From an uncultured Candidatus Saccharibacteria bacterium (GTDB lineage Bacteria > Patescibacteriota > Minisyncoccia > Phycocordibacterales > UBA9973), in the NCBI GenBank assembly GCA_964401625.1, contig CAYNYY010000003.1, positions 1-50,403 of the forward strand: a stretch of DNA of 50,403 bases, written 5' to 3'. The translations under genes were made by a program, and so were the position numbers. This document shows, one piece after another, positions 18,982 through 33,510 of the stretch (position 1 is its first letter; each line of letters opens with the position of its first letter). Below the pieces are notes generated by a model. The model ran no database searches. It was not told where the DNA came from and saw only the letters and a list, made by a program, of their open reading frames with translations.

Positions 18982-20127
18982 ATGCAAAATAAAAATCAAA
19001 CAGTTTTTGTTGGAATTTCTGGAGGAGTTGATTCTGCTGTTTCAGCCGCTATTTTAAAAAAACAAGGGTATAAAGTTGTTGGAGTTTTTATTCGTACATG
19101 GACACCAGATTTTATGGAATGTACATGGCGAGATGAACGTCGGGATGCAATGCGAGTTTGTGCTCATCTTGATATTCCATTTCTTGAATGTGATGCCGAA
19201 ATTGCTTATAAAAAAAAGGTGGCTGATTATATGATTGAAGAATATAAAAAAGGGAATACTCCTAACCCTGATGTAATGTGTAATAGAGAAATAAAATTTG
19301 GGATTTTTGGGAATTTTGCTAAAAAAAATGGCGCTGATTTTATAGCTACAGGGCATTATGCTTGTATAAAAGAGAATAGTTTTAGAGAAGTGACGGGTGG
19401 GGGCGTGCCATTTCGAGGTAATCCGAGGAATGGGGTTAAGGAACTTCGAGAAAAGCTATTCTCTTTAAAGCGCAATCAAGATCCATCTAAAGATCAGTCG
19501 TATTTTTTATGGACTCTTACCCAGAAAGATTTAGGGCATACACTTTTCCCTATAGGTCATTTAATGAAGAAGGAAGTTAGAAAATTAGCAAAAGAATATA
19601 AAATTCCAGTGGCTACTAAAAAAGATAGCCAAGGAGTTTGTTTTCTCGGTAAACTTGATATGAAAGATTTTTTAAAACATTATATTAAACCTAAAAAAGG
19701 AAAAGTCCTGAACGAAAAAGGAGAAATAATTGGATATCATCAAGGTGTAGTATTTTTCACATTAGGAGAAAGACATGGTTTTATTATTACTAAAAATTCT
19801 GATGAGGATAAGCCTCTTTATGTTATTTCAAAAAATATAAAAAATAATACAATTATAGTTTCTCCTATGTTAAAATTAGAAACACAAAAAAAAATTAATA
19901 AAATTATTATATGCAATAATGTAAATTGGATTTTTGATCTACCAAAAGAAAATAAAATTTATACTGGGCAAATTCGTTACCATGGAGAACTTTTATTTTG
20001 CAAAATAAAAGTTCTCCAAAACAAAAAATTCCAAATAATTTTTAAAAAAAATGTTTTAGCTGATAAGGGACAGTCTATAGTTATTTATGATGGAAATGTT
20101 TGTTTAGGTGGTGGTATTGTGCAATAA
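18982..20127 (+). CDS. mnmA: tRNA 2-thiouridine(34) synthase MnmA, carrying a ~20-aa insertion
   Basis: It has the PP-loop GISGGVDSAV, catalytic Cys contexts NPDVMCN and GVCFLG, and KDQSYFLW. Confidence 0.92.
   Translation: MQNKNQTVFVGISGGVDSAVSAAILKKQGYKVVGVFIRTWTPDFMECTWRDERRDAMRVCAHLDIPFLECDAEIAYKKKVADYMIEEYKKGNTPNPDVMCNREIKFGIFGNFAKKNGADFIATGHYACIKENSFREVTGGGVPFRGNPRNGVKELREKLFSLKRNQDPSKDQSYFLWTLTQKDLGHTLFPIGHLMKKEVRKLAKEYKIPVATKKDSQGVCFLGKLDMKDFLKHYIKPKKGKVLNEKGEIIGYHQGVVFFTLGERHGFIITKNSDEDKPLYVISKNIKNNTIIVSPMLKLETQKKINKIIICNNVNWIFDLPKENKIYTGQIRYHGELLFCKIKVLQNKKFQIIFKKNVLADKGQSIVIYDGNVCLGGGIVQ
19369..19466. repeat. Inverted-repeat-flanked GC-rich segment inside mnmA, in frame
   Basis: AAAGAGAATAG (19369-19379) is the perfect reverse complement of CTATTCTCTTT (19456-19466). 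The enclosed core at 19390-19450 is about 57% GC by hand count, set in a gene of roughly 25-30% GC. Confidence 0.55.
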
Positions 20128-20388: not shown

Positions 20389-20475
20389 TTCTGCTATCGC
20401 ATATTTTCGGTAAAATGGAATCTAACTCTTTTTACGCTATCGCGTGTTTTAGGTAAATAAATTCTAAATTATCAA
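20389..20475. repeat. Two degenerate tandem repeat units centred on GCTATCGC
   Basis: Unit 1 is CTGCTATCGCATATTTTCGGTAAAATGGAATCTAA and unit 2 is ACGCTATCGCGTGTTTTAGGTAAATAAATTCTAA. Their cores are at 20393-20400 and 20436-20443, spaced 43 nt apart. Confidence 0.6.
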
Positions 20476-20511
20476 CATGACACTTTTGTGCTATAGCACA
20501 AAAGTGTCATG
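20476..20511. repeat. Perfect 36-bp palindrome: hairpin, bidirectional terminator or operator
   Basis: CATGACACTTTTGTGCTATAGCACAAAAGTGTCATG is fully self-complementary, with a GCTATAGC core related to the two upstream units. It lies 66 nt upstream of the alaS ATG. Confidence 0.7.
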
Positions 20512-20542
20512 TATCTAAATTTATTAAATTATTAAAAAAGTT

Positions 20543-20577: not shown

Positions 20578-22323
20578 ATGTTATCTAATGAAATAAGATT
20601 AAGATTTTTAAAATTTTTTAAAAAAAGAAGACATGAAATTATTCCATCTTCTTCCTTAATTCCTCAGAATGATTCCTCTGTACTTTTCAATACAGCCGGA
20701 ATGCAACCCTTAGTCCCATATTTTTTAGGACAGAAACACCCTATGGGTGTTAGGTTGGTAAATTCTCAAAAATGTGTTCGAACTAATGATATAAATGAAG
20801 TTGGAGATAATAGGCATCTTACTTTTTTTGAAATGCTTGGTAATTGGTCAATGGGAGATTATTTTAAAAAGGAAGCAATTGCTTGGAGCTTTGATTTTTT
20901 AACTGATAAAGAAGAAGGGTTAGGTCTTAATAAAGATAGACTTTATATAACTGTTTTTGAAGGAGATGAAAACGTGGGAAAAGATATAGAAGCAGTTAAT
21001 TTTTGGAAAAAATATATTCCAGAAAATCGTATTTATTTATTACCAGCAAAAAATAATTGGTGGGGTGTTGGGGAAGATGGACCTTGTGGTCCTGATACAG
21101 AAATGTTTTATGACTCAAACAAAGAACCCCTTGGAGATATGACTCTTGAGGAGTTTATGAAAGCTGATAATGAGGGAAAAGTTATAGAAATTTGGAATAA
21201 TGTATTTATGCAATATGAAAAAGAAGAAGGAAAAATAATTGGTAAATTAGCCCAGCATAATGTAGATACAGGAATGGGTTTAGAAAGAATCGCGATGGTT
21301 TCGCAAGGAGTAAATACTGTTTTTGATACAGATTTATTCATACCAATTATTTCTAAAATAAAAGAGTTATCTTTTGTTAAAAACGAAAGAATAGAAAGAA
21401 TAATTGCTGACCATATAAGGACAGCTGTTTTTATGATTACTGATGGAGTGGTTTTAAGTAATACTGGCCGAGGTTATATCCTAAGAAGATTACTTCGTCG
21501 TATTATTAGATTTTCAAATGAAATAAGCTTACAAAGTGGTTCTTTTGAAAAAATTATAGATATCATTGTTGATAAATATAAAAAACCTTATCCAGAACTT
21601 GAGAAAAATATAGATAATATAAAAAGAGAAATAAATAATGAAGAAAAAAAATTTAAGCAAACACTAGAAAAAGGGTTAAGGGAATTTGAAAAAGGAGTTG
21701 ATCCGTTTATTTTATTTACTACTTATGGTTTTCCAATTGAATTAACTCTAGAGTTAGCAACAGAAGGAAAAATTAAAATAGATTTAGAAGATTTTAATAA
21801 AAAGATGAAAGAGCATCAAGATCTTTCTAAAGTTTCTTCAGTTGGAATGTTTAAAGGGGGACTTGCTGATCATAGTGAAAAAACTATTAAACTTCATACG
21901 GCGCATCACTTACTTTTAGCAGGAATTCAGGCTATTATAGGATCGGAAGTAAAACAGCGGGGAAGTAATATTACCGAAGAACGTTTACGGATAGATTTTC
22001 TTTGTAATCATAAATTAAGTAATGATGAAAAGAAAAAAATTGAAGATTGGGTAAATGATAAAATAAAAAAAGAACTCAAAGTTGTTCATCAAGAAATGCC
22101 ATTAGAAGAAGCTATAAAAATTGGGGCTCAAATGGAATTTGGAACAAAATATCCAGAGGTTGTTTCTATTTATTTTATTGAGGATGAAGGTGGACATATA
22201 TTCTCAAAAGAATTTTGTGCTGGTCCTCATGTTAAAAATACGAAAGTGCTAGGTCATTTTAAGATTAAAAAAGAAGAATCTGTGGCATTTGGTATTCGTA
22301 GAATTAAAGCAATATTAGAATAA
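20578..22323 (+). CDS. alaS: Alanyl-tRNA synthetase, short form without the C-Ala domain
   Basis: The N-terminus (FLKFFKKRRHEIIPSSSLIP...VLFNTAGMQP) and GLERIAMV mark the catalytic core. The editing-domain metal motifs HTAHHLL and CAGPHV are present. The protein ends at 581 aa. Confidence 0.92.
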   Translation: MLSNEIRLRFLKFFKKRRHEIIPSSSLIPQNDSSVLFNTAGMQPLVPYFLGQKHPMGVRLVNSQKCVRTNDINEVGDNRHLTFFEMLGNWSMGDYFKKEAIAWSFDFLTDKEEGLGLNKDRLYITVFEGDENVGKDIEAVNFWKKYIPENRIYLLPAKNNWWGVGEDGPCGPDTEMFYDSNKEPLGDMTLEEFMKADNEGKVIEIWNNVFMQYEKEEGKIIGKLAQHNVDTGMGLERIAMVSQGVNTVFDTDLFIPIISKIKELSFVKNERIERIIADHIRTAVFMITDGVVLSNTGRGYILRRLLRRIIRFSNEISLQSGSFEKIIDIIVDKYKKPYPELEKNIDNIKREINNEEKKFKQTLEKGLREFEKGVDPFILFTTYGFPIELTLELATEGKIKIDLEDFNKKMKEHQDLSKVSSVGMFKGGLADHSEKTIKLHTAHHLLLAGIQAIIGSEVKQRGSNITEERLRIDFLCNHKLSNDEKKKIEDWVNDKIKKELKVVHQEMPLEEAIKIGAQMEFGTKYPEVVSIYFIEDEGGHIFSKEFCAGPHVKNTKVLGHFKIKKEESVAFGIRRIKAILE

Positions 22324-29076: not shown

Positions 29077-29080
29077 TATT

Positions 29081-29115
29081 AAAAAATTCAGATTTTGTAA
29101 AAAGTCTGAATTTTT
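29081..29115 (+). terminator. Rho-independent terminator closing the ribosomal protein operon
   Basis: AAAAATTCAGATTTT / GTA / AAAA(G)TCTGAATTTTT forms a stem of about 15 bp with one bulge, followed by a T run. Confidence 0.6.
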
Positions 29116-29131
29116 GTATACTAGAGAAATT

Positions 29132-29716
29132 ATGAAAGATAAAGATGAAAAAAGAAAAATAGTTTCTAAAATAGATAATGATGATTTTACCTTTGAAGAT
29201 GATGAAGAAGATGATTTTTCATCTAATAGAAAAGATTTAGTGAAGAAGATTAGGGAAGATCTAAAAACTTGCCGAAAAGATAAAGAGGAGTATCTAACTG
29301 GCTGGCAGAGAGCTAAAGCAGATTATATCAATTTACAAAAAGAATTAGATCAAATTAGAGTTAGCAGTTCTATCTTAGCTAGGGAGAATTTCGTGCTCAA
29401 TTTATTACCAGTTATAGATAGTTTTGATATGGCTTTTGATAACAAAAAAGCTTGGGAGAAAGTTGATAAAGAATGGCGTATCGGCATAGAATATATTCAT
29501 CAACAATTCAAAACTAGCTTATTAATGTCCGGAGTTGAGCAAATTAATGAAATAAATATATCTTTTGATCCTAAAATCCATGATTCTGTAAAAATGATAA
29601 ATACAAAGAAAAAAGAACAAGATGGTATTATTGCTCAAATTATCCAAATTGGATATAGAATAAATGATCGTATCATTCGCCCTGCTCGGGTAAATGTTTA
29701 TAAATATAAAGAATAA
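29132..29716 (+). CDS. grpE: Nucleotide exchange factor GrpE
   Basis: It has the coiled-coil segment WQRAKADYINLQKE, then LLPVIDSFDMA and IIRPARVNV. The ATG at 29132 is preferred, because the upstream part of the ORF overlaps rpsI out of frame. Confidence 0.88.
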   Translation: MKDKDEKRKIVSKIDNDDFTFEDDEEDDFSSNRKDLVKKIREDLKTCRKDKEEYLTGWQRAKADYINLQKELDQIRVSSSILARENFVLNLLPVIDSFDMAFDNKKAWEKVDKEWRIGIEYIHQQFKTSLLMSGVEQINEINISFDPKIHDSVKMINTKKKEQDGIIAQIIQIGYRINDRIIRPARVNVYKYKE

Positions 29717-29729
29717 TACCTTTCTATGT

Positions 29730-30302
29730 TTATTCTTTATTCTTAAATAAAGAGAAGAATTCTTTTTCTGTTTCTTTATCTATTTTATTAGTTGCAATTA
29801 TAATCATTTCTGAGGAAAGATTTAAATCTTTTTTGATATTAGTAAAGAGATGTTCAAATGGGTACATAGAAATCCAAACAGAATTTTTAAGACAAATAAA
29901 TCCTGCTTTTTTAAGCAAATAACGTAGTGCTTCTCTTTCATTTTTTCTTTCCTCAGGTAAATCTAATATTATGATTCTCCAAAATCCATCCCATTTTATT
30001 GAGACTAAACTGGATTTATTTTTAAGAATAAGATCGTTAAGTTTTTGTTTTCCCTCATTAGTTAAACGAAAATATTGATTTCTTTCAGAACTAAATGATT
30101 CTACTAATCCATCGTTTATCAGATTTCTAATAGAACGAGTAATTGCGTAATTTGTTTTTTCTTTATTATCTTCTAAATTCTGATTATTTTTTCTAGAATT
30201 TATAAAATTTTGTACATTTTTTCTAATAAAATCTATAGGAACAGTTCTTTTATTTGAAAGAGTTCTTAAAATAATCCTTTGAATTGAAGGTTTTTTCATC
30301 AT
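29730..30302 (-). CDS. PaaX-family-like winged-HTH transcriptional regulator, divergent from dnaK
   Basis: It has a wHTH-like N-terminus (AITRSIRNLINDGLVE...YFRLTNEGKQKL). WDGFWRIIILDLPEERKNEREALRYLLKKAGFICLKNSVWIS parallels the E. coli PaaX segment WDGKWLLLL...KKQLIWQGFGALAPSLMAS. Confidence 0.6.
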   Translation of the reverse strand: MMKKPSIQRIILRTLSNKRTVPIDFIRKNVQNFINSRKNNQNLEDNKEKTNYAITRSIRNLINDGLVESFSSERNQYFRLTNEGKQKLNDLILKNKSSLVSIKWDGFWRIIILDLPEERKNEREALRYLLKKAGFICLKNSVWISMYPFEHLFTNIKKDLNLSSEMIIIATNKIDKETEKEFFSLFKNKE

Positions 30303-30309
30303 ATATCAC

Positions 30310-30338
30310 ATTTTAGCACTTTTAAAAATATTTGACAA
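30310..30338 (-). promoter_or_regulatory. Promoter of the regulator gene, TTGTCA-17-TAAAAT on the minus strand, implying a near-leaderless mRNA
   Basis: The minus-strand -35 is at 30338-30333 and the -10 at 30315-30310, and the ATG is at 30302. Confidence 0.5.
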
Positions 30339-30368
30339 GTATTTTGCGACCGCAAAATACTTGTCAAA
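30331..30368. promoter_or_regulatory. Perfect 18+2+18 palindromic operator candidate
   Basis: TTTGACAAGTATTTTGCG AC CGCAAAATACTTGTCAAA; each arm carries the -35 hexamer of one of the two divergent promoters. Confidence 0.6.
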
Positions 30369-30389
30369 ATCAATTAATAAGTATACAAT
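30361..30389 (+). promoter_or_regulatory. dnaK promoter, TTGTCA-17-TACAAT
   Basis: The -35 is at 30361-30366 and the -10 at 30384-30389, about 80 nt upstream of the dnaK ATG. Confidence 0.55.
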
Positions 30390-30472
30390 AGATGCTGACA
30401 TACTAATTGAACTGTTCAAATGGTATGTTTATTAAAAATTAATTTATTATTAATCAAATTATAAAAAATATT

Positions 30473-32410
30473 ATGAGTAAAATAATTGGTATAGATTTAG
30501 GTACAACTAATAGTGCTGTCGCAATCATAGAAGGAGGACAGCCTAAAATTATTGAGAATGTTGAAGGAGCTAGGACTACTCCTTCTGTAGTTGCAATTAC
30601 AAAGAATGGAGATAGAATGGTTGGTCTCTTAGCCAAACGTCAGGCTGTAACAAATCCAGAGAACACTGTTTATGGTATTAAGCGTTTTATTGGCCATCGG
30701 TTTGATGATCCTGAGATTCAGAAAGACGAGAAAACAATTCCATATAAAATTCAAAAAGGTCAAAATGGTGGGGTTGAGATCAAAATGGGTGATAAGTTTT
30801 TAAGACCAGAAGAAATTTCAGCAAAAATTTTAGGCAAAATTAAAGCAGATGTTGAAGCTAAGCTCGGTGAAAAAATTACAGAAGCTGTTATTACTGTCCC
30901 TGCTTATTTCAATGATGCTCAGCGTAAGGCAACTAAAGACGCAGGAGTTATTGCAGGACTTGAAGTTAAACGTATTATTAATGAACCAACGGCAGCTGCT
31001 CTAGCTTACGGTTTTAATAAGAAGAAAAATGAAAAAATCGTAGTTTATGATTTTGGAGGAGGGACATTTGATGTTTCAGTTCTGGAAGTAGGAGATGATG
31101 TTATTGAAGTTAAATCAACAGATGGTGATTCTCATATGGGGGGAGAAGATATTGATCAAAAAATTATTAAATGGATTGCCGATGAATATAAAAAAGAGTC
31201 AGGAATTGATATTACTAAGGATGTATTAGCGCTTCAACGGTTAAAAGAAGCTGCAGAAAAAACGAAACATGAACTTTCCACAACAATGGAATCGGAAATA
31301 AATATTCCATTTATAACTTCAGATGAATCTGGACCTAAGCACTTATTACTTAAAATGAATAGAGCAACCTTAGAATCTTTAGCTGAAGAATACATAACTC
31401 GTTCTATTGAAATAACTAAAAGAGCAATTGAAGCTTCTCCATTTAAAATGTCCGAAATTAATGAAATTATTTTAGTTGGAGGACAGACAAGGATGCCAGC
31501 AATTGCTGAAGCTGTTAAAAAACTTTTTGGTAAAGATCCTAATCGTTCCATCAATCCTGATGAAGTTGTAGCACTTGGTGCTGCTGTTCAAGCTGGAGTT
31601 TTACAAGGAGATGTTCGAGATGTTTTACTTCTAGATGTTATTCCTTTATCTCTTGAAATTGAAACATTAGGTGGAGTTGCGACAAAACTAATTGAACGTA
31701 ATACAACAATTCCAAGTTCTAAGTCACAAGTATTTTCAACAGCAGCTGATAATCAAACGTCGGTTGAAATTCATATCACTCAAGGAGAAAGACCTATGGC
31801 TCAAGATAATAAATCTCTTGGTCGTTTCATTCTAGATGGTATACCACCATCTCCTCGCGGAATGCCACAAATAGATGTTACTTTTGATGTTGATGCTAAT
31901 GGAATTTTAAATGTTAAAGCTAAAGATAAAGCTTCTGGAAAAGAACAATCTATTCGGATAGAAGCGAGTTCTGGTCTTTCTGAGGAAGATATTGAAAAGA
32001 TGAGGAAAGATGCTGAAACTCATACAGAGGAAGATAAGAAAAAGAAAGAATTAGTTGATATTAAGAATACAGCTGAAATGATGATATTTACAGCTGAGAA
32101 ATCAATAAAAGATTATGGAGATAAAGTTACTCCTGAAATTAAATCAGAGATAGAAAATAAAATTTCAGCTCTAAAAAAAGCTAAAGATGGAGACGATTTA
32201 GAATTAATTAGAACGGCTAATACTGATCTATCTGATGAAATATCTAAAATTGGTGAAATAATAGCTAAAGAAACCAAAGCTTCAGCTGAAAAGAAACCAG
32301 AAGATGAAAAAAAACCAGGAGAGCAAAAGGATGAAATAAAAGATGCCGAGGTCAATGAAAGTTCAGTTAATGAAGATCCAGTTGATGAGAAATCAAAAGA
32401 AGATAAATAA
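30473..32410 (+). CDS. dnaK: Chaperone DnaK (Hsp70)
   Basis: The motifs [20 protein letters not shown] and [11 protein letters not shown] are present, along with an acidic C-terminal tail. Confidence 0.98.
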
Positions 32411-32412
32411 CA

Positions 32413-33510
32413 ATGGCAAAAGATTATTATAAAACATTAAATCTTGACAAGAATGCCTCAAAAGATGAAATAAAGAAATCATTTCATGTTCTTGCCCATA
32501 AATATCATCCAGATAAAAATAACGGAGACGATAGTAAATTCAAAGAAGTTAATGAAGCATATCAAGTACTTTACGATGATAAAAAAAGAGCGAATTATGA
32601 TCGTTTTGGTTCTGCTGATATGAATGGTTTTTCTCAAGGAAGACAACAATCAAACTGGGGAGGTTTTTCTGGAGAACAACAATGGGATTTTTCTAATTTT
32701 TCTCAGAATGGAGAAGGCTTTGATATGGGAGATTTAGGAGATATATTTGGAGATATATTTAGAGGTGGACACAGAGGAAATAATGTTCGTCGCGGACGTG
32801 ATCTATCCGTAGAAATTAATTTATCTTTTGAAGAGTCTATTTTCGGAGTAAGTCGAGAAATAAATATCAATAAACAAACAGTTTGTGATAGTTGTAATGG
32901 AAGTGGAGCAAAAAAGGGAACAAAAATAGATTCTTGTAAAACTTGTAATGGACAAGGAAAAGTGCGTGAAATTAAGCGTTCAATTTTTGGTAATTTTTCA
33001 AGTATTAAAATTTGCGATGATTGTCATGGTTCGGGTAAAGTTCCATCTGAAAGATGTCCGGATTGTCGAGGATCTGGTATTCGTAAGAAAGAAGAGAATA
33101 TTAAATTTAAGATTCCTGCAGGAATTAATAATGATGAAATGATTAGACTGAATGGACAAGGTGAAGCTATTTCTGGTGGAACAGCTGGTGATTTATATAT
33201 AAAAGTAAAGATTACTCCACATAAGGAATATAAAAGAGATGGCCTAAATTTAACAATTAATTTATCTATAAAATTAACTGATTCACTCTTAGGAATGACC
33301 TATGAATTAAAAACCTTAGAAGGTAAAATTATAGAAGTTAAAATTCCTCAAGGTATAAAACATGGAGAACTTCTTCGGGTTAAAGGCAAAGGAGTTCCTT
33401 CAGGAAATAATAGAGGTGATATTATTATAAAGATATTGATTAATATTCCATCTAAAATATCTAAAGAAGCTAAAAAGTTAATAGAAGAACTAAAAGGAGA
33501 AGGATTTTAA
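32413..33510 (+). CDS. dnaJ: Co-chaperone DnaJ
   Basis: It has a J domain with HPD (KYHPDKN), a G/F-rich region and four CxxCxGxG zinc motifs. Confidence 0.95.
   Translation: MAKDYYKTLNLDKNASKDEIKKSFHVLAHKYHPDKNNGDDSKFKEVNEAYQVLYDDKKRANYDRFGSADMNGFSQGRQQSNWGGFSGEQQWDFSNFSQNGEGFDMGDLGDIFGDIFRGGHRGNNVRRGRDLSVEINLSFEESIFGVSREININKQTVCDSCNGSGAKKGTKIDSCKTCNGQGKVREIKRSIFGNFSSIKICDDCHGSGKVPSERCPDCRGSGIRKKEENIKFKIPAGINNDEMIRLNGQGEAISGGTAGDLYIKVKITPHKEYKRDGLNLTINLSIKLTDSLLGMTYELKTLEGKIIEVKIPQGIKHGELLRVKGKGVPSGNNRGDIIIKILINIPSKISKEAKKLIEELKGEGF

Follow-up and report, generated by a model that had tools for sequence, protein, structure and literature searches.

HrcA exerts negative control over chaperone operons through the controlling inverted repeat of chaperone expression (CIRCE), a long, perfect or nearly perfect inverted repeat at a sigma-70-type promoter, typically in the interval from that promoter to the start codon; hrcA itself usually heads an hrcA–grpE–dnaK operon. 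In Streptomyces, Mycobacterium and Helicobacter, the dnaK-linked and autoregulated repressor HspR, which has a MerR fold and is encoded last in the operon, acts at an inverted-repeat operator in the dnaK promoter (the HspR-associated inverted repeat, HAIR), and its activity is fed back by DnaK. The small dimeric repressors CtsR and RheA control clp and hsp18 genes and use their own thermal instability as the sensor; CtsR recognizes direct heptad repeats. PaaX is an autoregulated repressor that competes with RNA polymerase and controls divergent promoters from a wide inverted repeat, TGATTC-N27-GAATCA, and its C-terminal domain binds the inducer phenylacetyl-CoA (PMC9493321). Here we analyse a perfect 38-bp palindrome located between dnaK and the divergent gene for a 190-amino-acid PaaX-like protein (here called mini-PaaX) in a stretch of 50,403 nucleotides (nt) from an uncultured Candidatus Saccharibacteria bacterium (GenBank assembly GCA_964401625.1, contig CAYNYY010000003.1, positions 1–50,403; hereafter the window), and propose that the palindrome probably serves as operator for a repressor that is dedicated to the Hsp70 (dnaK–dnaJ) operon and regulates its own synthesis.

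The arrangement resembles each of the described systems in part. As with HrcA and CIRCE, a chaperone operon would be under negative control through a long inverted repeat at a sigma-70-type promoter, and both systems are widespread across phyla; here, in contrast to the usual position of CIRCE, the site overlaps two −35 boxes. As with HspR, a dnaK-linked repressor would regulate its own synthesis through an inverted repeat at the dnaK promoter, but this protein combines a winged helix–turn–helix (wHTH) with a Cas2-like domain, and its gene is divergent and apparently leaderless. CtsR and RheA have unrelated folds and operators and other target genes; nevertheless, intrinsic thermosensing of their kind is a plausible alternative where, as here, a regulator lacks a ligand domain. 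With PaaX of Escherichia coli and Pseudomonas (structures 8A39 and 3L09) the protein shares an N-terminal winged helix and a Cas2-like middle domain, and the candidate operator is likewise a wide inverted repeat (TTGACA-N24-TGTCAA). However, it has 190 residues rather than the ~300–316 of PaaX and no C-terminal inducer domain, the operator sequence differs, there are no paa genes nearby (the neighbours are rpsI, grpE, dnaK and dnaJ), and the target would be an Hsp70 chaperone operon in Patescibacteria. The palindrome overlaps the core promoters of both the regulator and its presumed target and is conserved across species, as is typical of the class of local, autoregulated repressors. In the searchable literature (subscription-only papers not covered), we found neither a PaaX-like regulator of dnaK nor an account of heat-shock regulation in these bacteria.

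A palindrome at two predicted divergent promoters

The element at positions 30331–30368 has the form TTTGACAAGTATTTTGCG-AC-CGCAAAATACTTGTCAAA, an inverted repeat of 18 + 2 + 18 nt in which the arms pair at every position (100% complementarity) and enclose a 2-nt spacer. A first, sequence-only reading of the window had reported this palindrome, with the −35 boxes of two divergent promoters inside it, and all of its coordinates are correct base for base. The palindrome is not explained by chance: the longest perfect arms in first-order Markov simulations of the window were 9–13 nt, compared with 18 nt here; no further copy of the half-site exists in the window when up to 3 mismatches are allowed (0.19 expected); and a weight matrix derived from 77 sites (the window and 76 relatives) assigns 53 bits to the window site, whereas the maximum over 20 shuffled versions of the window is 4.6 bits. 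No second site of 5 bits or more was found in the window with this matrix. Two caveats apply. The palindrome is perfect in the window genome only, as most relatives have a degenerate regulator-side arm at core positions 4–7, and the window holds two further long perfect palindromes, which are described below with the neighbouring genes. There were no Rfam matches and no tRNAs in the window.

A promoter scan recovered both of the promoters proposed earlier, TTGTCA-17-TACAAT facing dnaK and TTGTCA-17-TAAAAT facing the regulator gene (Table 1). The two −35 hexamers have their centres at equal distances, 14 bp, on either side of the dyad; the centre of the operator falls near −46.5 and −47.5 relative to the inferred transcription starts. 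The regulator ATG, at 30302, is only 7 nt past the −10 box, which implies that the regulator mRNA is leaderless. We also considered a different pairing, in which the inward TTGACA of each arm would be the −35 and AATACT the −10. This was rejected because those −10 hexamers are degenerate in relatives and the outward TTGTCA-17-TATAAT geometry is the conserved one.

Conservation across species

To place the site in context, we scanned one genome per GTDB species and obtained 80 loci, mostly from Paceibacteria, Paceibacterota or Nomurabacteria, 78 of which include the DNA upstream of the regulator. The site was found in all 78. A divergent dnaK follows beyond it in 75, and the remaining three contigs end before dnaK; the palindrome thus has the conservation upstream of dnaK on which the sequence-only reading had made its proposal depend. 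The site lies ~32 nt from the regulator ATG, most often 32–35 nt. In these loci, dnaK is 73–90% identical to that of the window (69 related loci), and the median identities to the window proteins are 57% for the regulator, 60% for DnaJ and 52% for GrpE. The regulator is therefore conserved about as well as DnaJ and better than GrpE. A convergent grpE occurs within 1.5 kb downstream of the regulator gene in 47 of 74 loci, usually behind rpsI.

The 30-bp core of the site has the consensus ACAAGTATTT-nGyGryCrCn-AAATACTTGT. Variation is absent or almost absent at positions C2, A3, T8, T9, G12, G14, C17, C19, A22 and G29, and likewise in the ACA/TGT and TTT/AAA blocks. The invariance of G12, G14, C17 and C19 in DNA with a background of ~30% G+C indicates that promoter function alone is insufficient to account for the site. 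The dnaK-side arm is nearly invariant and the regulator-side arm is variable at positions 4–7, where pairing is broken in 30–47% of sites with almost no double compensatory changes. Loss of complementarity without compensation is expected of a protein-binding site and not of an RNA or DNA stem. At core positions 14–17 (30348–30351 in the window), the sequence is GGTC in 47 of 77 sites, the reverse complement GACC in 21 and GATC in 1; the non-palindromic dyad centre occurs in either orientation relative to dnaK, and palindromic centres are nearly absent.

The promoters are conserved together with the site. Of the 77 aligned sites, 50 have TTGTCA at the dnaK-side −35 position, 61 have a 17-nt spacer and 59 have TATAAT (45) or TATACT (14) as the −10 box. 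The regulator-side −35 position is less conserved (TTGTAT, TTGTCA, ATGTTG and others). Of 58 loci, 42 have a TAnnnT that ends 6–7 nt ahead of the regulator ATG, in many cases behind a TG-n. Because the N-terminus of the protein (M-x-KKPSIQ) is conserved, this ATG is fixed as the start codon, and the spacing of the −10 box to it makes the leaderless mRNA, which was suggested originally for the window only, a conserved feature.

We also searched for the elements known to control dnaK elsewhere. With up to 3 mismatches allowed, CIRCE (TTAGCACTC-N9-GAGTGCTAA) has no match in the window. The DNA upstream of dnaK in 93 related loci, which together span 667 kb, contains no CIRCE even with 4 mismatches allowed, and neither HAIR (CTTGAGT-N7-ACTCAAG) nor CtsR boxes. 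Searches with tblastn gave no HrcA-like open reading frame (ORF) in the 50-kb window or in related loci, although this is weak evidence given an approximate query sequence. The earlier statements that the operon has no complete CIRCE and no adjacent hrcA agree with these results, and the conserved site, its linkage to dnaK and the lack of CIRCE, HAIR and CtsR elements upstream of dnaK support the proposal of a candidate non-CIRCE chaperone switch.

A truncated PaaX architecture

The earlier suggestion that the regulator resembles PaaX was examined by profile and structure searches, and it is well supported. The C-terminal half of the protein (residues 103–181) matches the Pfam family PaaX_M (PF20803, ‘PaaX central Cas2-like domain’) with an expect value (E) of 7e-20 and 71.4 bits, against a cut-off of 24. 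The N-terminal half has sub-threshold Pfam matches only (DUF6293_C, HTH_27 and PadR). The TIGR02277 equivalog model for PaaX gives 36.6 bits, against a cut-off of 264.55, and its match is limited to residues 56–170. There is no Pfam match to the PaaX C-terminal domain, and the chain stops just past the Cas2-like domain, at residue 190.

An AlphaFold2 (AF2) model of the monomer (predicted local distance difference test (pLDDT) of 76.6, predicted template modelling score (pTM) of 0.48) has three helices and a β-hairpin wing over residues 7–80, a linker helix and then a β-α-β-β-α-β fold over residues 108–171, with no additional domain. The top Foldseek matches in the PDB are E. coli PaaX (8A39) and the PaaX-like protein of Jannaschia (3L09), followed by RosR, MarR, PadR and LmrR (probability 1.0) and by the Cas2 structures 5zyf and 5xvn. 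When the family profile was searched against PDB sequences, the only matches were marginal ones to wHTH proteins (E of 0.2 or more); the kinship with PaaX is therefore visible only through Pfam and fold comparison. The regulator has a truncated PaaX architecture, composed of the putative DNA-binding and dimerization modules, and is not a PaaX orthologue. The label ‘PaaX’ in databases has been assigned by transfer and is misleading for organisms without aromatic catabolism.

The family is large, with more than 2,000 homologues at E < 1e-5. The best 120 homologues are 57–100% identical, and those few that have a named source belong to Patescibacteria or Nomurabacteria. Among 1.84 billion representative proteins, a profile search found 17 clusters at E < 1e-30, 729 at E < 1e-10 and 2,959 at E < 1e-3. 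The dnaK-linked group is one branch of this large superfamily of ~190-amino-acid proteins.

Deeper relatives and the extent of the predicted regulon

Linkage between the regulator and the site extends well beyond the species-level relatives. Five deeper homologues (P0130, P0134, P0135, P0137 and P0141; 30–37% identical to the window protein) are each encoded divergently from a grpE–dnaK(–dnaJ) operon. In their sites the outer arms TTGACAAGT...ACTTGTCAA are retained and again span 36 bp, and the centre varies (CGCGTACGCG, TGTGGATACA, CACTATATTG or ATGCAC-rich). The TGn-TAnnnT box 6–7 nt before the regulator ATG is also present in two distant loci, L081 and L211. Locus L211 (JGI Ga0643550_000171) has the order rplM–rpsI, convergent regulator and then divergent grpE–dnaK–dnaJ, compared with rpsI–grpE, convergent regulator and then divergent dnaK–dnaJ in the window. 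From these two orders, we conclude that in the window lineage grpE has moved from the head of the controlled operon, across the regulator gene, to the tail of the ribosomal-protein cluster. The pairing of regulator and site has thus persisted through rearrangement of the operon, down to 30% protein identity. Still more distant members (P0145, P0148 and P0151; E of 1e-23 to 1e-26) have no chaperone gene visible on their short contigs, and P0145 has an aldo/keto-reductase-like gene as its neighbour. The link to dnaK therefore holds for an orthogroup at E of ~1e-29 or better and does not extend to the superfamily as a whole.

Further sites were sought by a metagenome-wide pattern scan with TTYNGYGNNCRCNAAANACTTG, which returned 120 stretches. 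All 36 sites of ~20 bits or more adjoin the regulator gene, dnaK or both. Intermediate matches (L112, L134, L160, L175, L149, L157, L173, L168, L150, L108 and L192) were rejected as chance because they lie on high-GC contigs or within genes that are unrelated or eukaryote-like. Some weaker sites accompany dnaJ where it is separated from dnaK. In L032 (348–387; 20.6 bits) and L041 (~365–400), a weaker site lies ~60 nt upstream of such a dnaJ, and its outer arm TTGAAA forms a −35 box 17 nt before TAAAAT. In L101 (8558–8597), an 11-bit site is directly upstream of a detached dnaJ whose ATG follows a TAAAAT box after 7 nt. Judged by the strong sites, the predicted regulon consists of the Hsp70 system and the regulator itself. 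No significant tblastn match to GroEL, GroES, ClpB or HrcA was obtained in the window and 203 loci with the E. coli and Bacillus subtilis queries used, which were approximate, and the switch may control the Hsp70 operon only, with no wider heat-shock regulon.

Proposed repression of the Hsp70 operon and its alternatives

The reading that we favour draws on the anatomy of the palindrome, the domain architecture of the regulator and the conservation of the site, its spacing, the promoters and the gene linkage. From these, we infer that the 190-amino-acid protein binds the palindrome, that it represses rather than activates, and that it responds to heat or unfolded protein. Mini-PaaX would most likely dimerize through its Cas2-like domain and place one winged helix on each operator arm. 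Since each arm carries its −35 hexamer at the outer end, with the hexamer centred 14 bp from the dyad, one bound dimer would exclude RNA polymerase from both promoters simultaneously, shutting down dnaK–dnaJ and limiting synthesis of the regulator from its leaderless mRNA. Release of the repressor would then derepress dnaK–dnaJ and the regulator together. The trigger could be heat or unfolded protein, sensed either through thermal instability of the repressor, as for CtsR and RheA, or through titration of a DnaK-dependent active form, as for HspR. Both promoters are close to consensus and should need no activator. We favour repression for this reason, because the −35 boxes overlap the bases recognized, and because of the precedent of PaaX.

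Several points weigh against this reading. The operator covers the −35 boxes and leaves the −10 boxes and starts free, a placement that is compatible with an activator near −35. The AF2 model is of moderate quality and represents a monomer; dimerization of the regulator is extrapolated from PaaX and Cas2. The A-rich block beside each −35 box could owe part of its conservation to an UP-element-like function. No sensing mechanism is readable from the sequence, and the ligand-binding domain of PaaX is missing. The role in heat shock is read from the identity of the target operon, and groESL, clpB and htpG are absent from the loci examined. The model of repressor and operator is computational throughout.

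The first of these points leads to the strongest alternative, that mini-PaaX binds the palindrome but activates one or both promoters by contacting RNA polymerase. Some activators do use sites placed like this one, ~46–47 bp upstream of each inferred start with the −10 box and start left free. However, the near-consensus hexamers, the 17-bp spacing and the extended −10 of the regulator promoter predict intrinsically strong promoters, and with the −35 boxes inside the recognized arms, the bases contacted by sigma region 4 would also be those bound by the protein, so that the two would compete. Characterized PaaX proteins, moreover, are repressors (PMC9493321). We consider activation unlikely.

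A second alternative, which appears less probable again, accepts the palindrome as a real operator but assigns it to another, unlinked protein, with mini-PaaX merely a conserved neighbour. Binding by mini-PaaX is indeed deduced from sequence, and the wider superfamily (the 729 clusters at E < 1e-10) includes members in unrelated contexts such as that of P0145. Against this, the distance between regulator and site is fixed at ~32 nt in 78 of 78 loci, and the two remain paired when the operon changes from dnaK–dnaJ to grpE–dnaK–dnaJ. Furthermore, the centre of the site shifts in step with the divergent subfamilies of the protein as the arms persist, and autoregulation is classically marked by just this arrangement, a DNA-binding protein expressed from a promoter inside a palindrome.

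It is very improbable that no regulator is involved and that the element is either two back-to-back −35 boxes with UP-like sequence or a DNA or RNA hairpin such as a bidirectional terminator: the outer arms are indeed −35 hexamers, an AAATAC block sits where proximal UP elements do and a terminator scan flags a stem and T-run on the minus strand, but the invariant G/C positions of the dyad (GyGryCrC, at −41 to −52 of both promoters) fit no promoter element, no gene converges on the site so that there is nothing to terminate, stem complementarity is not kept, and the site is upstream of both −10 boxes and would not be transcribed from these promoters.

Neighbouring genes and other palindromes

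The dnaJ gene is presumably co-transcribed with dnaK (Table 1). The inferred 5′ untranslated region (UTR) of dnaK is ~76 nt long (30396–30472). It opens with a hairpin at 30396–30430 (GACAUACUAAUUGAACUGUUCAAAUGGUAUGUU), and the fold of 30396–30480 has a z-score of −2.2 relative to shuffles; no obvious Shine–Dalgarno sequence precedes the dnaK ATG. In some relatives, other genes are inserted around dnaK. A conserved 88-amino-acid ORF (MIDPxKIDFNQLPKKF...), with a weak sub-threshold match to DUF3467 (E of 0.006), lies between the operator and promoter and dnaK in L010, L012, L018, L020, L050 and L070, and probably heads the controlled operon in those species. Other inserts before dnaK differ, for example a protein of 172 amino acids resembling AAA_18 kinases in L020 and L066, and L204 has a PBP-family (PF01161) gene between grpE and dnaK.

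Table 1. Positions in the window of the candidate operator, the two promoters and the flanking genes.
Feature	Position	Strand	Remarks
Candidate operator	30331–30368	none	Conserved 30-bp core at 30335–30364; outer hexamers TTGACA-N24-TGTCAA
dnaK promoter, −35 TTGTCA	30361–30366	+	Promoter scan; inside right arm of operator
dnaK promoter, −10 TACAAT	30384–30389	+	Promoter scan; 17-nt spacer; inferred start near 30396
Regulator promoter, −35 TTGTCA	30333–30338	−	Promoter scan; inside left arm of operator
Regulator promoter, extended −10 TGCTAAAAT	30310–30318	−	TAAAAT at 30315–30310; 17-nt spacer; TG-n in front
Regulator gene (190 amino acids)	29730–30302	−	wHTH at residues ~7–94; PaaX_M/Cas2-like ferredoxin fold at residues ~103–187
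dnaK (Hsp70)	30473–32410	+	ORF; first gene of presumed controlled operon
dnaJ	32413–33510	+	ORF; 2 nt after dnaK stop
grpE	29138–29716	+	Pfam GrpE, E of 1e-32; behind rpsI, convergent with regulator gene

The weight matrix finds no operator upstream of grpE in the window, and in the window lineage grpE is predicted to be outside the operator-controlled unit. The sequence-only reading had placed grpE behind an rpsI terminator. The gene does follow rpsI; the terminator is only plausible, as the AT-rich hairpin and T-run in the gap at 29077–29137 (AAAAATTCAGA...TCTGAATTTTT) fall below detection by the terminator scan. Directly after this hairpin, 9 nt before the grpE ATG, is an extended −10-like box (TGTATACT), and grpE may have a promoter of its own with a very short leader. 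A 254-amino-acid ORF that starts at a TTG (28952) overlaps rpsI and is probably an over-extension, because the GrpE domain starts after the ATG at 29138.

The two other long palindromes are both perfect. One is a 38-bp palindrome at 20475–20512 (ACATGACACTTTTGTGCTA/TAGCACAAAAGTGTCATGT; 19 + 19 nt without a spacer), which is ~65 nt upstream of an ORF (20578–22323) whose N-terminus resembles alanyl-tRNA synthetase. E. coli alanyl-tRNA synthetase autoregulates through a palindrome at its own promoter, and the palindrome here could, by analogy, be an operator of the same kind. The other (36 bp, GGAGAACTTTTATTTTGC/GCAAAATAAAAGTTCTCC) is at 19983–20018, within an ORF (18982–20127) that is MnmA-like by its N-terminus; it is far above the arm length expected by chance (9–13 nt in simulations).

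Discussion

To our knowledge, almost nothing is known of regulation in bacteria of the candidate phyla radiation, which are uncultured and have few transcription factors and no characterized promoters or regulons. The locus described here provides a candidate regulator–operator pair at base resolution, across at least 78 species-level lineages as well as deeper relatives. The inferred pair of sigma-70-type promoters, one of them for a leaderless mRNA, gives a first comparative picture of promoters for the group, and the switch is a candidate answer to how Hsp70 is controlled in genomes whose dnaK upstream regions show no CIRCE, HAIR or CtsR elements. What is new is a predicted pair of repressor and operator for a chaperone operon, from a family that had no earlier link to such a role. 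The model can be tested with the 190-amino-acid protein and a 38-mer oligonucleotide, and no cultivation is required.

The findings also provide the first function proposed for one branch of a large, unannotated protein superfamily. A broader interpretation is possible and considerably more tentative: mini-PaaX may represent an unrecognized class of chaperone repressor, the counterpart in Paceibacteria and Patescibacteria of HrcA, HspR, CtsR and sigma-32, in which stress would be sensed through thermal lability of the Cas2-like dimer or through DnaK acting on the repressor. In that case, the same fold, with its 729 clusters at E < 1e-10, may have radiated into many local regulators in these reduced genomes.

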